Both the position numbers and the translations under genes were made by a program. Below, in pieces: positions 1 to 36,357 of a DNA stretch of 64,000 nt. Numbering within the stretch: the first letter of the stretch is position 1; each line of letters begins with the position of its first letter. The DNA comes from Escherichia coli (GTDB lineage Bacteria > Pseudomonadota > Gammaproteobacteria > Enterobacterales > Enterobacteriaceae): assembly GCF_013122565.1 (NCBI RefSeq), contig NZ_CP053258.1; one strand, 5' to 3'. Below the pieces are notes generated by a model. That model was not told the DNA's origin. It did not search any database and was given only the letters and a program-made list of their open reading frames with translations.

Positions 1-625
1 CGAATTCGGTCAGGATTTACAGGCTATTTCTGCGGGCGGTGGGCTTTCTATTCCTTATCAACAGGGTGAAGAGGCGGTTGATACCGAACATTATTATGGT
101 CTGTGGAATGCCGCGCGTGAGCAAATCGCTCGCCATTTGGGCCACCCTGTGAAACTGGAAATTGAACCGGGTCGCTTCCTGGTAGCGCAGTCTGGCGTAT
201 TAATTACTCAGGTGCGGAGCGTCAAACAAATGGGTAGCCGCCACTTTGTGCTGGTTGATGCCGGGTTCAACGATCTGATGCGCCCGGCAATGTACGGTAG
301 TTACCACCATATCAGTGCCCTGGCAGCTGATGGTCGTTCTCTGGAACACGCGCCAACGGTGGAAACCGTCGTCGCCGGGCCGTTATGTGAATCGGGCGAT
401 GTCTTTACCCAGCAGGAAGGGGGAAATGTCGAAACCCGCGCCTTGCCGGAAGTGAAGGCGGGTGATTATCTGGTACTGCATGATACAGGGGCATATGGCG
501 CATCAATGTCATCCAACTACAATAGCCGTCCGCTGTTACCAGAAGTTCTGTTTGATAATGGTCAGGCGCGGTTGATTCGCCGTCGCCAGACCATCGAAGA
601 ATTACTGGCGCTGGAATTGCTTTAA
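1..625 (+). CDS. lysA: Diaminopimelate decarboxylase, C-terminal part (5' end lies outside the window)
   Basis: Open frame runs from window edge to stop at 623-625; translated C-terminus matches my memory of LysA; position next to galR agrees with K-12 order. Confidence 0.85.
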   Translation, partial: EFGQDLQAISAGGGLSIPYQQGEEAVDTEHYYGLWNAAREQIARHLGHPVKLEIEPGRFLVAQSGVLITQVRSVKQMGSRHFVLVDAGFNDLMRPAMYGSYHHISALAADGRSLEHAPTVETVVAGPLCESGDVFTQQEGGNVETRALPEVKAGDYLVLHDTGAYGASMSSNYNSRPLLPEVLFDNGQARLIRRRQTIEELLALELL

Positions 626-631
626 CTGCGG

Positions 632-1663
632 TTAGTCGCTGGTTGCATGATGACTTGCCTCCAGCGACGGAGTTGACACTGAATGGCGACGTACCAGCGT
701 CGGACTAAAGACATTAGTGATTTCCGGGAGAGGGCGATTATCCGCCAGCGCCAAAGCCAGTTCGGCAGCCTGGGTCGCCATCGTCACGATTGGGTAACGC
801 ACGGTGGTCAGGCGCGGGCGCACATAGCGTGACACCAGCACATCATCAAAGCCAATTAACGAAATCTCACCCGGTACATCAATACCATTATCATTGAGAA
901 CGCCCATCGCACCCGCCGCCATTGAATCGTTATAACAGGCTACCGCAGTGAAATTTCTTCCTCGTCCCAAAAGCTCGGTCATTGCCTGTTCGCCGCCGCT
1001 TTCGTCTGGTTCGCCAAATGTCACCAGCCGGTCATTGGCCGCAATACCACTTTCAGCAAGAGCATCGTAATACCCTTGCAGACGATCTTCGGCGTCAGAA
1101 ATAGAGTGGTTAGAGCACAGATAACCAATGCGGGTATGACCTTGCTGAATTAAATGACGCGTAGCCAGCCAGGCACCGTAACGATCGTCCAGAGCAATAC
1201 AACGGTTTTCAAAGCCAGGCAGGATACGGTTGATCAGCACCATACCGGGCATTTGTTTCATTAATGAGGCTAAATCGGCATCTGGGATCATTTTGGCATG
1301 GACGACCAACGCAGCACAGCGATGGCGGATCAGTTGCTCAATAGCCTGACGCTCTTTTTGTTCGTTGTGGTAACCGTTGCCAATCAATAAGAAATTACCG
1401 GTGTGATAAGCCACCTGTTCGACCGCTTTCACCATTGCACCGAAAAACGGATCGGAAACATCACCAACAACCAGACCGACCGTTTCAGTGGTCTGCTGCG
1501 CCAGCGCACGGGCGTTGGCGTTCGGGTGATAGCTAAGAGACTCCATTGCACTATGCACAGCCAGCCGGGACGCTTCGCTGGCTTTGGGTGAATTATTAAT
1601 GACGCGGGAAACGGTGGCGACTGAAACGCCTGCCAGTCGGGCTACATCCTTTATGGTCGCCAT
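632..1663 (-). CDS. galR: Galactose operon repressor, LacI family
   Basis: 343 aa ORF; N-terminal HTH MATIKDVARLAGVSVATVSRVIN typical of LacI/GalR; synteny with aas and lysA. Confidence 0.92.
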   Translation of the reverse strand: MATIKDVARLAGVSVATVSRVINNSPKASEASRLAVHSAMESLSYHPNANARALAQQTTETVGLVVGDVSDPFFGAMVKAVEQVAYHTGNFLLIGNGYHNEQKERQAIEQLIRHRCAALVVHAKMIPDADLASLMKQMPGMVLINRILPGFENRCIALDDRYGAWLATRHLIQQGHTRIGYLCSNHSISDAEDRLQGYYDALAESGIAANDRLVTFGEPDESGGEQAMTELLGRGRNFTAVACYNDSMAAGAMGVLNDNGIDVPGEISLIGFDDVLVSRYVRPRLTTVRYPIVTMATQAAELALALADNRPLPEITNVFSPTLVRRHSVSTPSLEASHHATSD

Positions 1664-1876
1664 GAAAATACCTTAGTGGGTAAACGCTTACATTCTTTCA
1701 GTGTTACGGAAAACGCCCGTTGGTTCAAGGGGTGGCGTGTTTTCATCGTGGGAATGTGAGCCAAACGCAAATAAGTAAGACAAAAAAAGAGATTGCAAAC
1801 CTTTGGTTACACTTTGCGAAACGCTGTTGCGATTGACCGCTGGTGGCGTTTGGCTTCAGGTTGCTAAAGTGGTGAT

Positions 1877-1958
1877 CCCAGAGGTATTGATAGGTGAAGT
1901 CAACTTCGGGTTGAGCACATGAATTACACCAGCCTGCGCAGATGCGCAGGTTTTTTTT
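1877..1958 (+). ncRNA. omrB: OmrB small RNA (RygB), 82 nt
   Basis: Starts CCCAGAGGTATTGATAGGTGA and ends in a GC hairpin plus T-run; shares 5' and 3' ends with the copy at 2074; length and 116-nt spacing match my recollection of the K-12 aas-galR intergenic sRNAs. Confidence 0.85.
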
Positions 1959-2073
1959 TGCCGGTCATCAATCTGTAACAGTAACCGACAATTTACACAC
2001 CTCGTTGCATTTCCCTTCATTCCTTTGCGTTTTCTCGCTGGCGAAGAGTCGTCGTGCAGACCACAATCAAGAT

Positions 2074-2161
2074 CCCAGAGGTATTGATTGGTGAGATTAT
2101 TCGGTACGCTCTTCGTACCCTGTCTCTTGCACCAACCTGCGCGGATGCGCAGGTTTTTTTT
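2074..2161 (+). ncRNA. omrA: OmrA small RNA (RygA), 88 nt
   Basis: Starts CCCAGAGGTATTGATTGGTGAG and ends CTGCGCGGATGCGCAGG plus T-run; 88 nt and 88 nt upstream of the aas start, as I recall for K-12. Confidence 0.85.
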
Positions 2162-2227
2162 CGCACCTAATTTACTGTCGCTCGCGTTCTTTATCTCGTG
2201 TAATCTCCCTCCATTCGCTTTTACTGA

Positions 2228-5594
<3,367 letters not shown>

Positions 5595-5625
5595 TATTTA
5601 ACGCCGGTTTTAACCGGCGTTAATC

Positions 5626-15515: not shown

Positions 15516-15823
15516 AGAATCAACAAGGCTTTAGCCTGCCGGAGGTAATGTTGGCGATGGTGTTGATGGTGGTGATTGTCACTGCGTTATCGGGTTTCCA
15601 GCGAACATTAATGAACAGTCTTGCCAGCAGAAACCAGTACCAACAGCTCTGGCGGCATGGTTGGCAGCAAACGCAACTGCGCGCGATTTCGCCACCTGCA
15701 AACTGGCAGGTCAACCGAATGCAGACATCGCAGGCGGGATGTGTCAGCATCAGCGTTACGCTAGTTTCACCCGGGGGCAATGCAGGCGAGATGACCCGCC
15801 TGCATTGCCCGAATCGTCAGTAG
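15500..15823 (+). CDS. ppdC: Prepilin peptidase-dependent protein C
   Basis: Start at [20 protein letters not shown] (ATG 15500) with a prepilin motif; 107 aa. Confidence 0.85.
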
Positions 15824-29253: not shown

Positions 29254-30507
29254 ATGTCAGGATCCAACACTGCAATCAGCCGTCGTCGTTTACTGCAAGG
29301 CGCGGGCGCCATGTGGCTATTGAGCGTAAGTCAGGTCAGTCTGGCTGCGGTCAGCCAGGTCGTGGCGGTGCGCGTCTGGCCTGCGTCCAGCTACACCCGT
29401 GTGACGGTAGAATCAAATCGTCAGCTGAAATATAAGCAGTTCGCGTTGAGTAACCCGGAACGCGTGGTGGTGGATATCGAAGATGTAAACCTGAACTCGG
29501 TACTCAAGGGGATGGCGGCACAAATTCGTGCAGACGACCCGTTCATCAAGTCGGCGCGCGTCGGGCAATTTGACCCGCAGACCGTACGCATGGTTTTTGA
29601 ATTAAAGCAAAACGTAAAACCGCAGCTGTTTGCCCTTGCGCCGGTCGCCGGGTTTAAAGAGCGTCTGGTGATGGACCTCTATCCGGCCAATGCACAGGAT
29701 ATGCAGGACCCGCTGCTGGCGCTGCTGGAGGATTACAACAAAGGCGACCTCGAAAAGCAGGTGCCGCCAGCGCAAAGTGGTCCACAACCGGGTAAAGCAG
29801 GGCGCGATCGTCCGATTGTCATTATGCTTGACCCTGGCCACGGTGGCGAAGACTCCGGTGCGGTGGGGAAATACAAAACGCGCGAAAAAGATGTGGTATT
29901 GCAAATAGCTCGCCGTTTGCGCTCTCTGATCGAGAAAGAGGGCAATATGAAGGTGTACATGACGCGCAATGAAGACATCTTCATTCCGTTGCAAGTGCGC
30001 GTAGCAAAAGCCCAGAAACAGCGTGCTGACCTGTTTGTCTCTATCCATGCCGACGCCTTTACCAGTCGCCAGCCGAGCGGTTCCTCGGTGTTTGCGCTCT
30101 CAACCAAAGGCGCAACCAGTACTGCGGCAAAATATCTGGCACAAACCCAGAACGCCTCGGACTTGATTGGTGGCGTGAGCAAAAGCGGTGACCGCTATGT
30201 CGACCACACCATGTTCGATATGGTGCAGTCGCTGACCATTGCCGACAGCCTTAAGTTTGGTAAAGCGGTGCTGAATAAGCTCGGTAAAATCAACAAGCTG
30301 CATAAAAATCAAGTTGAACAGGCCGGGTTTGCCGTACTAAAGGCACCAGATATTCCCTCCATTCTGGTCGAAACGGCGTTTATCAGTAACGTTGAGGAAG
30401 AGCGTAAACTGAAAACGGCGACCTTCCAGCAGGAAGTTGCGGAGTCTATTCTTGCGGGGATTAAAGCGTATTTTGCCGATGGGGCGACGCTGGCGAGAAG
30501 GGGATGA
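29254..30507 (+). CDS. amiC: N-acetylmuramoyl-L-alanine amidase AmiC (Tat-exported)
   Basis: Start at [21 protein letters not shown] (twin-arginine signal), ATG 29254; amidase_3 domain; 417 aa. Confidence 0.9.
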
Positions 30508-30682
30508 TGTTTTTAATTTATTCAATGAATTTATGTTTCATTGAATAAATATTATTTACATAAATGTTGAACGATGGTTTTGTGACTGCTGTCGAATATT
30601 TGAATATCGGCTTAAAAAATAAGCCTGCCATCTCTTTTATTAAGCACAATTCCGTGTAAGGTATACGCATTAGTTAATTATC

Positions 30683-30754
30683 TTGTAACTGTTAAATCAG
30701 GCAAGGCAATGTTTGAAGTAATTATTACTTCTGACATGCCTTGCCTTTTTTTTT
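30683..30754 (+). promoter_or_regulatory. RAT-like sequence overlapping an intrinsic terminator (antitermination leader)
   Basis: TCTTGTAACTGTTAAATCAGGCAAGGCAA resembles bgl/sac RAT elements (TTGTTACTG...CAGGCAAAACC); it overlaps the 5' arm of a long imperfect hairpin (30698-30746) followed by a 9-T run; RBS GGAG and ATG 30766 follow immediately. Confidence 0.6.
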
Positions 30755-30765
30755 GGAGCCATGGA

Positions 30766-31590
30766 ATGATCATCGAAAAAGTCATGAACAATAATTGTGT
30801 ACAGGCATCGGTGAACGGACAGGAGGTTATCATTTCTGGGCCTGGCGTTGGTTACAATAAAAAATATGGTATGTCGGTCCCTGAACATCCTGCAAACCGG
30901 ATTTTTTATGTCAGAAATGAGCAAAAAAATAAACTCTACAAATTGATTGAGCATGTGGGTATTGAGTATATTTTTGTTGCCGAAAAGATAGTGCATTATG
31001 CGGAGAGTAATCTCGAAAAAAAACTCAATCCATCGCTACTACTGATTCTTGCTGATCACATTTCGAATGCAATATCCCGAGTCGTCTCAGGCATACAAAT
31101 TAATAATGTTTTCCTTGAGGAAATCAAAGCGTTGTACAAAGCAGAGTATGCAATAAGTCGTGATGCATTAACAATCATTAATGAGCAATTTAGCGTTCAA
31201 CTACCGGATGATGAGATTGGTTTTATAGCATTGCATATTTTAAATAATTATGAGAATTCAGTTGATTATGAATCAGTACGGATTATTGAGCTGTCTCAAA
31301 AAATCACGGAGCTTATTGAAGTAGTTTATAACAGAAGAGTGGACAGAAGTTCATTTAACTACTCCAGATTTATGATGCACCTTAAATATTTTTCTAGTCG
31401 TGTGTTATGTAATGAAAAAATAAAACAGAAAAATATTGGTGATATCTATGAGCAGTTTCTTGAAAAAGATTTTCAGTTACAACGTGCCATTCATGAAATT
31501 GAAAGATATCTGTACGCAACTTTTAAATATGATTTGATTCTGGAAGAAAAACTATATCTTTCTATTCGCATCAAAGTATTAATGGACTAA
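30766..31590 (+). CDS. BglG/LicT-family transcription antiterminator (CAT RNA-binding domain plus two PRD domains)
   Basis: Start at MIIEKVMNNNCVQASVNGQEVIISGPGVGY (CAT-domain pattern) with RBS GGAG 8 nt upstream; PRD-like histidines (LILADHISN, IALHILNN); about 274 aa; AT-rich codon usage. Confidence 0.75.
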   Translation: MIIEKVMNNNCVQASVNGQEVIISGPGVGYNKKYGMSVPEHPANRIFYVRNEQKNKLYKLIEHVGIEYIFVAEKIVHYAESNLEKKLNPSLLLILADHISNAISRVVSGIQINNVFLEEIKALYKAEYAISRDALTIINEQFSVQLPDDEIGFIALHILNNYENSVDYESVRIIELSQKITELIEVVYNRRVDRSSFNYSRFMMHLKYFSSRVLCNEKIKQKNIGDIYEQFLEKDFQLQRAIHEIERYLYATFKYDLILEEKLYLSIRIKVLMD

Positions 31591-31621: not shown

Positions 31622-33202
31622 ATGAAACAAAAGAAAGCCTGGAGTTTTTTTCAGAGCCTGGGGAAGGCATTTATGTATCCCATCGCTCTGTTAAGTGTAT
31701 GTGGTATGATGTTAGGGCTGGGAAGTGGTTTAGCCAGCGATGATATGGCAAAATTAATTCCAGTGTTGGCTATTCCGTTAATTAAAACCATACTTGATTT
31801 TATTGTTAGCCTTGGTTTGTTTGCCTTCGTTAATTTACCTGTATTGTTTGCGATAGCTATACCTTTGGGATTATTAAAAGAGAAAGATGATAAAGCCTAT
31901 GGCGCTTTTTCTGGCTTAATTGGCTTTATGGCGATGCATCTTGGAACGAACTTTTATCTTAAACAGCACGACTTATTGGTAGCTGCTGACCAAATGTCGA
32001 CACATGGGCAAACCATCATACTCGGGATCCAGTCATACAATACCAGCGTGTTGGGTGGGATTGTGGCAGGGTTATTAGTCGCCAGCATGTATAAAAAGAT
32101 CGTTAACTTACGTATTCCTGAATCATTAGGGTTTTATAGTGGCCCACGCCTGGTGCCTATCATTACACTGATTGTGATGAGTGGATTTGGTCTGATCATT
32201 CCTTTTATCTGGCCGCCATTTTTCAATCTTTTCATGCTCATTGGTCACTGGATTTCAACTTCCGGTCCTGTTGGTTATTTCTTCTATGCTGTTGCCGAAC
32301 GCGTGACGATACCTTTTGGCTTAAATCACTTGGTGACATCAGTTTTCCGCTTTACCCCAATCGGCGGATCGGCAGTGATTGGCGGTGAAGAGTATTACGG
32401 CACCCTGAACATGTTTATGGCATACGTCAAAGAGAATGCGGTCATTCCGCTGGATTTGGCGGGGAAAATGGAGCAGGGCAAACTGATGATTCAGTATGGT
32501 CTGGCTGGAGCCGCGCTGGCGATGTATCGCACTGCTCATGCTCAAAACAGAAGGGCTATCAAAGCATTGCTGATTTCCGGTGTGCTCACGGTAATTATTG
32601 GCGGCGTCAGCGAGCCGATTGAATTTCTGTTCTTATTTGTCAGCCCGCTGTTGTTTGTCTTCCATGCCTTTATGAATGGATTGGCTAACATGGTTCTGCC
32701 ATATATGGGCGTGAAGATGGGCTTTACTGGCGATCTGATTCAATTTATTAGCTTTGGTGTCTTACGTGGCACAAGAACGGGATGGCCATTAGCGGTATGT
32801 GTTGAAGTGGCTTATTTCTTCATTTATTACTTTGTGTTCCGTTGGACCATTCTCAAATTTAACCTGATGACTGTAGGCCGTGAAGAGTCCAGTCCTGTCA
32901 CGCTGAACGCTCACGAAGAAACTGCAATAGCTAACATCCCAGTTCATGATAAATCAGAGTTGCAGGCAGCGGAGCAAATGGTTAAGGCTCTGGGTGGTAA
33001 AGAAAATATTAAATCACTGGATAATTGTGTAACTCGTTTGCGTTTAACTATCGCGGATATGGGATTGATAGATGAGGCTGCAATAAAAAGGGCCGGAGGA
33101 ATTGCGGTTGTGAAACTTGATCAAAATACCTTACAAGTCATTATCGGTACAAAAGTCATCGCACTACGTCGGGATATGGATAACTACATGGGGATATGTT
33201 GA
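31622..33202 (+). CDS. PTS EIICB component, glucose/maltose (MalX-like) family
   Basis: 526 aa; N-terminus FFQSLGKAFMYPIALLSVCGMMLGLGS and C-terminal EIIB motif SLDNCVTRLRL closely resemble MalX/PtsG as I remember them; no EIIA domain. Confidence 0.8.
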   Translation: MKQKKAWSFFQSLGKAFMYPIALLSVCGMMLGLGSGLASDDMAKLIPVLAIPLIKTILDFIVSLGLFAFVNLPVLFAIAIPLGLLKEKDDKAYGAFSGLIGFMAMHLGTNFYLKQHDLLVAADQMSTHGQTIILGIQSYNTSVLGGIVAGLLVASMYKKIVNLRIPESLGFYSGPRLVPIITLIVMSGFGLIIPFIWPPFFNLFMLIGHWISTSGPVGYFFYAVAERVTIPFGLNHLVTSVFRFTPIGGSAVIGGEEYYGTLNMFMAYVKENAVIPLDLAGKMEQGKLMIQYGLAGAALAMYRTAHAQNRRAIKALLISGVLTVIIGGVSEPIEFLFLFVSPLLFVFHAFMNGLANMVLPYMGVKMGFTGDLIQFISFGVLRGTRTGWPLAVCVEVAYFFIYYFVFRWTILKFNLMTVGREESSPVTLNAHEETAIANIPVHDKSELQAAEQMVKALGGKENIKSLDNCVTRLRLTIADMGLIDEAAIKRAGGIAVVKLDQNTLQVIIGTKVIALRRDMDNYMGIC

Positions 33203-34410
33203 TGGATATTTTTAATACCTCAATTTCTCGTAAAGGAACATATTGCACACAATGGGACTTTTGTGAAGACAGATTTGGTGTAAAAGATGTATTACCATTC
33301 TCTATTTCAGATATGGATCTTCCGATACCGGAAGCTATCATCAGAACATTAAAAAAACGTCTGGAACACCCGATTTTAGGGTACAGTCGTTGGCAGCATG
33401 ATGACTATCTGAATTCGATAGTCAATTGGTATCATCAACAATATAAAACAGAGATTCAACCAGAATGGATCACCTATAGCCCAAGCGTGATGTATTCAAT
33501 ATCTAAGGCAATAGAAATATTGACATTGAATGGAGATAATATTCTCATTTTCACGCCTGTTTATAACGCATTTTATGATGTGATTAAGCATAATGGTCGA
33601 AACATGCTAACAACCTCTTTGATGAAAGAAAATGGGAGAGGCTACGTTATCAACTGGCAAGACTTTGAGCTTAAAATTAAAAGCGCGAAGATGGTGTTAT
33701 TATGTAATCCTCATAACCCGACAGGAACGGTCTGGTCGGAAGACGATCTTCACAGAATCGCAGCATGCTGTGCAAGGCATAATATTTGGTTATGTTCAGA
33801 TGAAATACATAGTGATTTTGTTTTTAATCATAGTTTCACGTCAGCGCTAACAATAAAAGATGACAAAGTGGTGGTGTTTAATTCGATTTCGAAAACATTT
33901 AATGTTCCTGCGCTAACCGGATCATATATGATTTCAACTGACGATAATTTTAATCATAAGTTCAGAACGATATCGAGGTATCGCGATTTTGTAAACTCCC
34001 CATCAGTACTGAATGTAATTGCGACCATTGTTGCCTATAATGAATGTGAAGAATGGTTAAAGTCATTAAAGGTACATATTGCCTCTAACATTCAATTTAC
34101 CTTGCAGTATTTAAATGAAAATATTCCGGAATTGATCGTATGGCCAGCTGAGGGCTGCTATTTTTCGTGGGTTGATTGCTCGGCCCTTGGTTATCCCTTT
34201 GATAAATTTTACCGTCGATTAATTAACGAAGGGAGAGTAGGTATTATGGCGGGGCATGTTTATGGTACTGAAGGAGAGGGCTATCTGCGTCTTAATCTGG
34301 CCTGCAGTCGAGAAAAATTATATATGGGGCTTGCGCGCCTTGCGAGTGTAATTAAAAATATTAATCAGGAAAAAGAAAATGAACAATACGGATCTTATCC
34401 ATCTTATTAA
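33202..34410 (+). CDS. PLP-dependent C-S lyase / aminotransferase class I-II, MalY/PatB-like
   Basis: N-terminus GTYCTQWDF..DRFG..DVLPFSISDMD closely parallels MalY (GTWCTQWDY..DRFG..LLPFTISDMD); start taken at ATG 33202 (TGATG overlap with the PTS stop, GGGGA 7 nt upstream); alternative ATG at 33196. Confidence 0.78.
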   Translation: MDIFNTSISRKGTYCTQWDFCEDRFGVKDVLPFSISDMDLPIPEAIIRTLKKRLEHPILGYSRWQHDDYLNSIVNWYHQQYKTEIQPEWITYSPSVMYSISKAIEILTLNGDNILIFTPVYNAFYDVIKHNGRNMLTTSLMKENGRGYVINWQDFELKIKSAKMVLLCNPHNPTGTVWSEDDLHRIAACCARHNIWLCSDEIHSDFVFNHSFTSALTIKDDKVVVFNSISKTFNVPALTGSYMISTDDNFNHKFRTISRYRDFVNSPSVLNVIATIVAYNECEEWLKSLKVHIASNIQFTLQYLNENIPELIVWPAEGCYFSWVDCSALGYPFDKFYRRLINEGRVGIMAGHVYGTEGEGYLRLNLACSREKLYMGLARLASVIKNINQEKENEQYGSYPSY

Positions 34411-34975
34411 ACATTTTATGCGTAACGAACATAAAGCAGTAGAAGAGGTTATTGATTCCCCCCTTTCGGAAGTCGCGAATTTAATTAAAATATTACAATC
34501 TTGCCAGGGAAAAGTTGTTTTTATTGGTGTTGGGAAATCTGGCATTATTGCCAGAAAACTTGCTGCAACATTTGCCAGCACCGGAACTCCCTCGTTTTTT
34601 GTTCACGGTACGGAAGCGGTACACGGCGACCTTGGGATGGTGGCGAAAGACGATGTTGTTATTCTTATTTCAAACAGTGGTGAGACGGCGGAAATCCTGG
34701 CGACACTGCCTAGTTTGAAAAAAATGGGTAATTATTTGATCTCTTTTACCCGCAGTCATCACTCATCGCTTGCGATAAGTTGTGATTTATCTGTTGAAAT
34801 CCCCGTCAAAAGTGAGGCGGATAATTTAGGTTTAGCACCGTCATGCTCGTCTACTGTTGTTCTGGTTGTTGGTGATGCGGTGGCGCTTGCACTCTCTGAA
34901 TTGAAAAAATTTACTCGTGCTGATTTCGGCTTATATCATCCAGGAGGTGCACTCGGCATTAAAGCAAATTCATAA
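34379..34975 (+). CDS. SIS-domain sugar-phosphate isomerase (KdsD/GutQ-type SIS without CBS domains; candidate arabinose-5-phosphate isomerase)
   Basis: 198 aa; VFIGVGKSGIIARKLAATFASTGTPSFFVHGTEAVHGDLGMV matches the N-terminal SIS domain of arabinose-5-P isomerases; no CBS tail; RBS AGGA upstream; overlaps the upstream gene by 32 nt. Confidence 0.75.
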   Translation: MNNTDLIHLIKHFMRNEHKAVEEVIDSPLSEVANLIKILQSCQGKVVFIGVGKSGIIARKLAATFASTGTPSFFVHGTEAVHGDLGMVAKDDVVILISNSGETAEILATLPSLKKMGNYLISFTRSHHSSLAISCDLSVEIPVKSEADNLGLAPSCSSTVVLVVGDAVALALSELKKFTRADFGLYHPGGALGIKANS

Positions 34976-35046
34976 TTTCAAAGTATAAATACAGTAACCG
35001 GTCACGCCATCTTTTGGGGTGGCGTTCATTGAAGTGAGTGTCAGCT

Positions 35047-35994
35047 ATGAAAAATGTTCTGGTCACCGTCCCCAGCTTTTCAGCACGCTGTGTTTCCGCC
35101 AGCAAGTTGCTAAGAGAGAATAATTTTAACCTTATTATTAAGAATAATGTGGAGCATCTGCTTAAATCAGAATCCACTGCATTACGAGAATCTATTTGCG
35201 CGGTCATCGCCGGAAAAGATTGTTACCAGGCGGACACGCTATCATTGCTGCCTGGTGTGAGAATAATATCGAGATTCGGGACGGGGATAGATAATATTGA
35301 TCTTCGTGCAGCACAACAATCCGGTATTGTAGTCAATAATGCGGTTGGGATTAATTCAAATGCTGTCGCGGAATTTATCATTGGACTTATCTTCGCGAGC
35401 ATGAGAAATATTCCTGGCAGCTATCATGCGATGCAAAATGGCTACTGGGGTGAGTCGCATGGCTATGAATTACAAGGCAAACGGATTGGCCTGGTTGGCT
35501 ACGGCAATATAGGTAAAACCCTGGCAAAAAGGTTATCCGGTTTTGATGTTGAGCTTTTAGCTTATGACAAACAACCCGATTATCAGGTTGCTGACAAAGT
35601 TGGAGTTCAGTTTGTATCAATTGAAGATATCTTTATGCAGTCGCATGTCATCATTGTTCTTTTGCCTTTTTCTCCTGAGCTGGAGAACTTCATTAGTCAT
35701 AAATATTTGTCGATGATGCGCAATGGTGCTCTAATCATCAATGCCGCAAGGGGAAAGTTGCTGGATGAGGGCGCTTTACTACAGGTGATTGAAGAACGAA
35801 ATGTGTTTGCGGCGCTGGATGTGTTTAGCTCTGAACCGTTGGCGCAATTTAGCCCACTGCTACATGCCAAAAATATCATTACAACGCCGCATATTGCGGC
35901 CGCCACCGTTGAGTCATACCAGCAAACCGGTACACACGTTGCCCAGTCGATAATTGATTACTTCGCAGGAAGGGAGATAAAAAACGTGTTGTGA
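35047..35994 (+). CDS. D-isomer-specific 2-hydroxyacid dehydrogenase (NAD-binding)
   Basis: About 315 aa; Rossmann motif GLVGYGNIGKTLAKR; family-typical TTPHIAAAT near the C-terminus; alternative GTG start at 35038. Confidence 0.75.
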   Translation: MKNVLVTVPSFSARCVSASKLLRENNFNLIIKNNVEHLLKSESTALRESICAVIAGKDCYQADTLSLLPGVRIISRFGTGIDNIDLRAAQQSGIVVNNAVGINSNAVAEFIIGLIFASMRNIPGSYHAMQNGYWGESHGYELQGKRIGLVGYGNIGKTLAKRLSGFDVELLAYDKQPDYQVADKVGVQFVSIEDIFMQSHVIIVLLPFSPELENFISHKYLSMMRNGALIINAARGKLLDEGALLQVIEERNVFAALDVFSSEPLAQFSPLLHAKNIITTPHIAAATVESYQQTGTHVAQSIIDYFAGREIKNVL

Positions 35995-36020: not shown

Positions 36021-36056
36021 AAAAAAACCGCAATTTGTGGAACACATTGCGGTTTA
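36021..36056 (-). terminator. Intrinsic terminator downstream of tRNA-fMet (minus strand)
   Basis: Minus-strand hairpin AACCGCAAT / ATTGCGGTT followed by a 7-T run, immediately 3' of the tRNA. Confidence 0.6.
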
Positions 36057-36062
36057 TCAGCA

Positions 36063-36139
<77 letters not shown>

Positions 36140-36357
36140 CCACCCCGCGTCCGTGGATGCGCACTATACTCCGCTCGCGTTTTCATGCAACCTTTTTTTT
36201 ACCCCGATCACGGTTCTGGCATGATTTTGAACAAAAACAAATCACTAAAGCCTATTTTTTGTGCAAAATTTGCGTCAGGGAGAGGCTGCTCATTTCATTA
36301 AACGCGGCGGTTTGTTATCTTCGTTGCGCCTTATTTTTTAACCTGAAGAAGAGAACA

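Follow-up and report, generated by a model that had tools for sequence, protein, structure and literature searches.

The phoU-bglG intergenic region of Escherichia coli K-12 contains, directly past the phoU stop, a perfect AT-rich 14-bp repeat, ACAAATCCCAATAA-CTTAA-TTATTGGGATTTGT (L030:16613-16645, minus strand), that has reportedly been described as a terminator or as a dyad-symmetry element of the silencer in papers by Schnetz and by the Mahadevan laboratory. We found that this repeat is absent from the bgl-free strain 6EVA (L031), that its d-score as a terminator is -34.8, and that its B2 allele (L038) carries two changes, both of them G.U wobbles on the phoU-sense strand. A DNA-level silencer has been described upstream of bgl (PMC8836124), and the upstream promoter regions of bgl are non-homologous between genera, while the RAT/terminator leader is homologous (PMC2646131). 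Another acquired locus silenced by H-NS is exsBA of Vibrio parahaemolyticus, for which an intergenic AT-rich cruciform that is attenuated by HlyU has been reported (PMC10325908).

We have analyzed a comparable arrangement in a 64-kb stretch of an E. coli genome (the window), in which the gene order is recD(+), argA(-), amiC(+), a 5.5-kb module of ~40% GC, tRNA-Met(-) and mltA. The module encodes five proteins and corresponds to c3405-c3410 of PAI-CFT073-metV (PMC2831201). The two genes at its start form the pafR/pafP pair known from the metV island (Baum et al. 2014, cited by PMC8882828). The pafR-pafP module has been linked to the urinary-tract fitness of uropathogenic E. coli (PMC2831201), and the same link is credited to Baum et al. 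2014 in the summary given by PMC8882828. The genes concerned, together with the terminator on the tRNA side, are the following:

29254..30507, plus strand: amiC CDS, N-acetylmuramoyl-L-alanine amidase (open reading frame and RefSeq annotation of near-identical E. coli loci)
30766..31590, plus strand: PRD/CAT antiterminator of the BglG family, pafR of the metV island (Pfam CAT_RBD and PRD, annotation; name via PMC8882828)
31622-33202, plus strand: PTS EIICB permease
33196-34410, plus strand: MalY/PatB-like aminotransferase
34379-34975, plus strand: SIS protein
35038-35994, plus strand: 2-hydroxyacid dehydrogenase
36025..36055, minus strand: canonical terminator of the tRNA-Met gene, AAACCGCAAT...ATTGCGGTTT followed by a T-run
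36073..36149, minus strand: tRNA-Met (CAT), single copy in the window

There is an overlap of 32 nt between the aminotransferase and SIS genes and one of 7 nt between the PTS and aminotransferase genes, which suggests a tightly packed operon with translational coupling. The single tRNA-Met of the window reflects copy-number variation of a tandem tRNA array, which has three copies of the gene (metZWV) in K-12, 05-3629, E69 and A. hermannii and two at the E. whittamii locus.

Just past the TGA stop of amiC (30505-30507) we found a perfect inverted repeat at 30516-30550, with 14-nt arms and a 7-nt loop, that reads ATTTATTCAATGAA-TTTATGT-TTCATTGAATAAAT. The elements between amiC and the antiterminator gene are, in order:

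30508..30509, no strand: similarity breakpoint between module-bearing and module-free E. coli, directly past the amiC stop
30516..30529, plus strand: left arm of the hairpin, ATTTATTCAATGAA
30530..30536, plus strand: hairpin loop TTTATGT (TTTATAT in most alleles; 1 of 7 columns variable)
30537..30550, plus strand: right arm of the hairpin, TTCATTGAATAAAT
30551..30559, plus strand: U-rich tail ATTATTTAC, interrupted and weak, no canonical U-run (tail score 1.79)
30579..30605, plus strand: conserved block TTTTGTGACTGCTGTCGAATATTTGAA with a TGTGA half-site (4 of 27 columns variable, 15%)
30610..30626, plus strand: second small hairpin, GGCTTA-AAAAA-TAAGCC
30683..30703, plus strand: RAT-like target sequence for the antiterminator, TTGTAACTGTTAAATCAGGCA; shares its end with the leader terminator (5' arm)
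30700..30754, plus strand: strong leader terminator, GGCAAGGCA...TGCCTTGCC followed by T9 (d-score +38.5)

The earlier note on this DNA had described 12-nt arms (30518-30529 and 30537-30548) placed 11 nt after amiC; arms and distance are both confirmed, and they form the core of the longer repeat, whose 14-nt stem begins already 8 nt past the stop because amiC ends at 30507. A sub-palindrome, TTCAnTGAA, is present within each arm. The palindrome is real and non-random, an AU-rich hairpin that is conserved in its lineage and stands on the side of the paf module facing amiC. No perfect hairpin-type repeat in the 64-kb window is longer, although it shares this rank, and when 200-bp blocks were shuffled, so that local composition was preserved, any 14-nt arm turned up over the 64 kb in 1 of 100 shuffles. 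As RNA the palindrome folds with -15.3 kcal/mol (z = -2.45 against shuffled sequence, 81-nt context). The window holds two other perfect repeats of the hairpin type, a GC-rich one of 14 bp at 15775-15810 (GGGCAATGCAGGCG/CGCCTGCATTGCCC, 8-nt loop) and one of 12 bp at 5598-5623 (TTAACGCCGGTT/AACCGGCGTTAA, 2-nt loop). No further copies of the dyad were found in the window with up to 3 mismatches, nor in plasmids, and with one place per genome in 1688 genomes the palindrome is not a multicopy repeat of the REP, ERIC or MITE type. An Rfam scan of 30300-31000 at a permissive threshold gave chance-level eukaryotic matches alone, with E values of at least 1.

Module-free E. coli genomes align to positions 30000-30508 of the window (query 1-509) and K-12 diverges from 30509 onward, so that the palindrome, as the earlier note had it, is located at the island junction. 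Since the similarity to module-free genomes ends at 30508, it lies inside module-specific DNA, 8 nt from the breakpoint. The module is carried by 1687-1690 of the 5426 complete E. coli genomes (~31%), and among these complete genomes the palindrome segment was matched only in the ~1688 that bear the module, i.e., it is specific to this haplotype. When the junction was compared with island-free strains, no palindrome was found there and a GC-rich amiC terminator was present instead. The possibility envisaged in the earlier note, that the palindrome is an unchanged part of the amiC 3' UTR of island-free strains, therefore does not apply. The amiC-metV spacer of K-12 is 73 bp long and contains two terminators, that of amiC (AAAAAGGCGCTGAATGGCGCTTTTTT) and that of the convergent tRNA-Met operon. 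The module-bearing arrangement is without either of them; the tRNA side of the module has the new canonical terminator at 36025-36055, and on the amiC side the palindrome is the sole hairpin. Like the K-12 amiC terminator, it is a sense stem-loop a few nucleotides past the stop of the same gene, in the same position (the canonical amiC terminators start at +6 after the stop in K-12 and at +5 in Atlantibacter). The amiC stop codon itself is TGA or TAA among module-bearing alleles, and in some B2 strains synonymous-looking differences are clustered in the last ~40 nt of amiC, which suggests recombination tracts that may reach into the gene.

In spite of this position, the hairpin scores poorly as a terminator. 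The opinion of the earlier note that it is no canonical intrinsic terminator is borne out by the 2 G-C pairs among 14, by the negative d-score and by the empty terminator scan. Actually, its d'Aubenton-Carafa-type d-score ranges from -38 to -67, and that of true terminators nearby from +3 to +38 (K-12 amiC +3.6, A. hermannii amiC +3.2, leader +38.5). The hairpin energy is modest (-12.8 to -14.8 kcal/mol) and the tail AUUAUUUAC is interrupted, with a tail score of 0.9-2.3 across alleles and no uninterrupted U-run. A terminator scan of 30300-31000 requiring at least 3 G-C pairs gave no match, the palindrome not being called, and a consensus scan in and near the palindrome found neither a terminator nor a plus-strand promoter. 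The hairpin shares with intrinsic terminators the conserved pairing with G.U-tolerant variation, and differs from them in being AU-rich, 14-16 bp long, with a 7-nt loop, an interrupted tail and strongly negative scores. By position it qualifies, as a sense hairpin past the stop with no other terminator before 30700-30754. The small hairpin at 30610-30626 was considered as the real canonical terminator of amiC and rejected, as its d-score is -53 to -64 and its register shifts between lineages: it has a 9-bp stem, GTCGGCTTG/TAAGCCGAC, in B2-type alleles and a GCCAGA/TCTGGC register in E. whittamii. In the literature we found no transcript-end data for module-bearing strains, and what we found on c3405-c3410, pafR and the regulation of PAI-metV gives genomic and virulence context only.

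The first canonical terminator 3' of amiC on the plus strand is that of the module leader. Together with the RAT it stands directly upstream of the antiterminator gene, in the same design as the K-12 bgl leader (the bgl RAT of K-12 being GGATTGTTACTGCATTCGCAGGCAAAACC), and the pattern TTGTWACTG-N(3-10)-CAGGCA has one match, at 30683-30703. The RAT is invariant across all Escherichia alleles, and the leader is nearly identical in Citrobacter and Atlantibacter. The earlier note had thought of the island antiterminator as a binder of the palindrome; this is an RNA-binding CAT/PRD protein, and its RAT-like target lies outside the palindrome. The palindrome itself was discarded as a RAT target, having no similarity to RAT, with RAT and terminator (30683-30754) 150-200 nt downstream. 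Between the palindrome and the conserved block there is a variable spacer (30551-30578), and the block (30579-30605) may serve the module promoter as an activator site, of the CRP type or another; the motif TTTGTGA is also seen upstream of the module in Atlantibacter and in L037, a contig of another enterobacterium.

The palindrome varies in the population. We have compared 11 distinct alleles over the 75 nt past the end of amiC, from related genomes, the stems of which belong to seven types. In the list that follows L and R are positions in the left and right arm, and the genome counts were derived from identity bands:

Window/07-4299 allele: perfect stem; 45 genomes
O111/O26-type allele: L12 G-to-T, which breaks a G-C pair; about 217 genomes
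M1/5-type allele: R4 A-to-G; about 254 genomes
UTI89/AST85-type allele: R4 and R12 A-to-G, 16-bp stem; with the ST131-type, most of the remaining ~1174 genomes
ST131-type allele: the UTI89-type changes plus an R6 T-to-C mismatch; count shared with the UTI89/AST85-type
E69 and L022 allele: L3,L4 TT-to-CC with R11,R12 AA-to-GG, and R3 C-to-A; single records
E. whittamii allele: L13, L14 and R9 A-to-G (all G.U), and R11 A-to-C; single record

The perfect form is thus found in 45 of the 1688 module-bearing complete genomes, and most of the others have 1-3 stem substitutions. Throughout these changes the structure is preserved and the sequence is not. Standard pairs make up 91.9% of the pair cells (10 distinct rows), and 34-57% when the partners are slid as a control. 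Both partners have changed in two of the pairs and one partner in four others, E69 and L022 having two fully compensated pairs, from U-A to C-G. Besides, RNAalifold recovers the helix from the alignment. The statistical support is modest: the covariation value was exceeded in 19 of 500 column shuffles. By a parsimony count, 9 of the 13 inferred substitutions keep the pair and 4 break it (binomial P = 0.008 for the former, assuming that a neutral change keeps the pair one time in three), and the pairing has been retained across lineages in which the spacer flanking the hairpin diverges by 18-32%. The constraint is not strict, since two common alleles have a true mismatch (L12 in O111/O26 and R6 in ST131). 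Also, the double changes are adjacent and belong to one lineage, so that they possibly come from one palindrome-templated event and not from selection.

This variation bears directly on the proposal of the earlier note that the palindrome is a protein-binding site, in its most specific form an operator at which a dimeric regulator would bind the DNA and control the module or amiC, be this regulator a global factor or a specific but unlinked repressor. The perfect dyad of the window allele, the TTCAnTGAA sub-palindrome in each arm and the position upstream of a regulated operon would agree with an operator. Conserved half-sites would then be predicted, yet 36-43% of the stem columns vary with the pairing kept (5 of 14 in one arm and 6 of 14 in the other), compared with 50% in the adjacent, neutral-looking spacer and 0-21% in the conserved promoter and RAT blocks, and most alleles are asymmetric as DNA. 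None of the module proteins is a DNA-binding regulator, a search of the 64 kb with up to 3 mismatches gave no second site, the complete E. coli genomes have no other near-copy, and the dyad centre lies ~137 bp upstream of the presumed transcription start. By eye, we saw no convincing match to the consensus sequences of CRP, Fur, ArgR, IHF, Fnr, NagC/Mlc, Cra, the LysR type (T-N11-A), PhoP, the DnaA box, dif/Xer or Tus-Ter. A CRP site within the palindrome was rejected for the odd 7-bp spacing, which does not suit the consensus, and a Ter-like sequence, TTGTAACT, for being located in the RAT and not in the palindrome and for missing the critical G. An operator is for us very hard to believe in, the least credible of the explanations that we have considered.

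The changes on one side of the stem also differ between the strands. Among the six one-sided transitions, five lead from A to G and so yield G.U pairs on the strand that is sense for amiC, and one is of the reverse kind (5 against 1 wobble events; P ~0.11). These five are wobble pairs in the sense RNA alone, and therefore the sense RNA folds much better than the antisense, in all 8 alleles and by up to 8.6 kcal/mol: -16.4 against -8.3 kcal/mol in UTI89, -15.5 against -6.9 in AST85 and -11.4 against -4.7 in E. whittamii. A hairpin formed by DNA would give the same strand bias, because, by its positive GC skew, the sense strand serves as the template of the lagging strand as well. As a whole, the pattern of variation fits an RNA stem-loop better than a sequence-specific operator or an integration scar.

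A different explanation at the DNA level is that the palindrome is a structural element of the upstream silencer of the module, acting as a nucleation or high-affinity site of H-NS, through cruciform extrusion or by destabilising the duplex. Indeed, it is located in the most AT-rich 200 bp of the region, the GC content being 28.5% at 30500-30699, against ~40% in the module and 52-57% in the core, so that AT-rich acquired DNA upstream of a promoter, as expected of an H-NS silencer, is present here. It lies ~135-140 bp upstream of the presumed transcription start, which must precede the RAT (30683). The ATAAAT/ATTTAT cores of both arms match 7 of 10 positions of the H-NS motif, TCGATAAATT. In the form of single-stranded DNA, the allele of the window also folds well (-10.7 kcal/mol, z = -5.1 against shuffled sequence), and the layout is that of bgl: a core gene, an AT-rich repeat, an AT-rich spacer, the promoter, the RAT/terminator and the antiterminator gene. 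The likeness to the bgl upstream silencer region extends to the AT-rich DNA that separates a core gene from the promoter of a PTS operon under antiterminator control, within acquired DNA. However, the dyad is imperfect as DNA in ~97% of module-bearing genomes, and one-sided changes have been tolerated only as G.U or G.T on one strand, with loss of the duplex symmetry. H-NS binding requires AT-richness and not dyad symmetry or conserved pairing, which is the signal at the amiC locus, and it leaves the two-sided changes in two pairs unexplained. Moreover, Citrobacter, Atlantibacter and L037 run the same module and RAT leader without the element. For a cruciform to be extruded in vivo, 14 bp is a short arm length. 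A cruciform-forming repeat was rejected, as in place of a near-perfect DNA dyad across the population we found 45 perfect forms in 1688 and 1-3 asymmetric changes in the majority alleles. The likeness to the exsBA cruciform consists in an AT-rich inverted repeat in intergenic DNA of an H-NS-silenced acquired locus, and the amiC repeat differs in having no known cognate attenuator, in its short arms and in the imperfection of most of its natural alleles as DNA. Taken together, we regard such a silencer element as unlikely.

The hairpin is present beside amiC in all the Escherichia loci with the module that we have seen, i.e., E. coli of several phylogroups, the divergent E. coli E69, E. whittamii and five metagenome contigs. 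It is absent from the orthologous modules of Citrobacter, Atlantibacter and L037, whose antiterminators are 76-79% identical and whose RAT leaders are near-identical. In Citrobacter the module is at a different locus, beside tRNA-Asp. Atlantibacter hermannii and a related lineage have amiC, a GC-rich canonical terminator, ~350 bp of AT-rich DNA, the module and tRNA-Met. In L037 (328-420; Logan SRR28502117 contig) amiC is followed by a K-12-like terminator sequence and by a 14-nt fragment of the tRNA-Met 3' end, TGGCTGCGGGGGCC, beyond which there are ~480 bp of unrelated DNA and then the pafR-like module. From its sequence, L037 seems to preserve the att-type junction formed when an island first integrated at tRNA-Met, a junction that would have been lost in Escherichia. 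As in bgl, the DNA upstream of the RAT is unrelated between genera, in contrast to the shared RAT leader. In each genus the module stops beside a convergent tRNA gene, at the 3' end of the latter (tRNA-Asp in Citrobacter, tRNA-Met in Escherichia and Atlantibacter), and no integrase was seen in the retrieved flanks (Citrobacter L008, L010 and L024; window 36025-36149).

In the window, no second copy of the tRNA 3' end, TGGTTGCGGGGGCC, was found at the distal junction with up to 2 mismatches, and the flanks of the module showed neither direct repeats nor att-like sequence; local alignment of 30509-30640 with the module upstream regions of Citrobacter, Atlantibacter and L037 was no better than with shuffles, so that the palindrome segment has no traceable source. 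Lacking the tRNA fragment, flanking repeats and cross-genus similarity, the Escherichia junction is secondary, and the hairpin is an Escherichia-specific feature of this secondary junction. An integration (att) scar of a tRNA-targeting island was rejected, there being no direct repeat of the tRNA 3' end at the junction. These data apply as well to the suggestion in the earlier note of a junction scar, which fared no better: a passive scar predicts a decay of the pairing that has not occurred, and the tRNA-Met fragment of the integration type seen in L037 is absent here. A broader version holds that the palindrome is a non-functional relic, arisen by chance or when the module was brought up against the amiC stop by a secondary deletion or replacement, and kept by recency or by palindrome-templated replication errors. 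In favour of this, 8 nt separate it from the breakpoint, and it occurs once per genome and in Escherichia alone, at a junction from which the K-12-type terminators and the 14-nt tRNA-Met fragment of L037 have gone; real mismatches occur in common alleles, and the adjacent double changes in one lineage fit a single templated event. Against a relic are the pairing retained across lineages with so divergent a flanking spacer, the excess of pair-keeping changes (P about 0.01), the bias of one-sided changes to one strand, and the absence of direct repeats on the flanks, of att-like sequence and of transposon ends. We judge it improbable that the palindrome is a relic of this kind.

The phoU-bgl hairpin provides a parallel at a second locus. 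Like that of amiC, it borders an acquired PTS operon of the BglG type, precedes UAUAUAUAAC and a spacer rich in AT, has a negative terminator score, is absent where the islet is absent and has G.U variants on the sense strand. It has no sequence similarity to the amiC hairpin, and its stem has four G-C pairs and a 5-nt loop. By analogy, this parallel supports the reading as an RNA stem-loop.

Our preferred reading is accordingly a tentative one, that the palindrome encodes a stem-loop of the RNA within the 3' UTR of amiC, serving as a weak, non-canonical terminator or as a barrier at the 3' end; we consider it quite possible, a little short of probable. It is favoured by the position at the place of the missing terminator, the conserved pairing without conserved sequence, the compensatory changes and the bias to the sense strand. 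Both the formation of the RNA hairpin in vivo and its terminating or stabilising role are what we infer from these features. The AU-rich hairpin of 14-16 bp would take the place of the missing amiC terminator, 5-8 nt past the stop, and would be transcribed by the RNA polymerase leaving amiC. With its interrupted U-rich tail it would cause, at best, weak and non-canonical termination or pausing, and it may block 3'-to-5' exonucleases and in this way define a stable 3' end of amiC. Polymerases that read through would cross the promoter region of the module and stop at the RAT-associated leader terminator (30700-30754), 150-200 nt downstream, a stop that would be lifted when the PafR antiterminator is active.

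The hairpin is most likely a non-canonical gene-end RNA stem-loop, a fairly ordinary feature. A far bolder idea is that a "boundary hairpin" has been selected repeatedly on the upstream side of BglG-type PTS islets acquired by E. coli (amiC-paf, and phoU-bgl in K-12), as a deliberately weak AU-rich stem-loop that would replace the strong terminator of the core gene and set the fraction of read-through into the RAT leader, so that the antiterminator would gate expression coming partly from a housekeeping promoter while the islet promoter is silenced by H-NS. We think this very unlikely. The practical value of the finding is modest, a previously unannotated gene-end element beside the cell-division amidase gene amiC. 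It is also a small case, found in nature, of conservation that is strand-specific and tolerates G.U, and is of help in telling palindromes that act at the level of RNA from those acting at the level of DNA. Should the hairpin terminate only weakly, transcription of amiC would enter an antiterminator-controlled leader in ~31% of E. coli, and if so both the stability of the amiC mRNA and the basal expression of the module would be affected.
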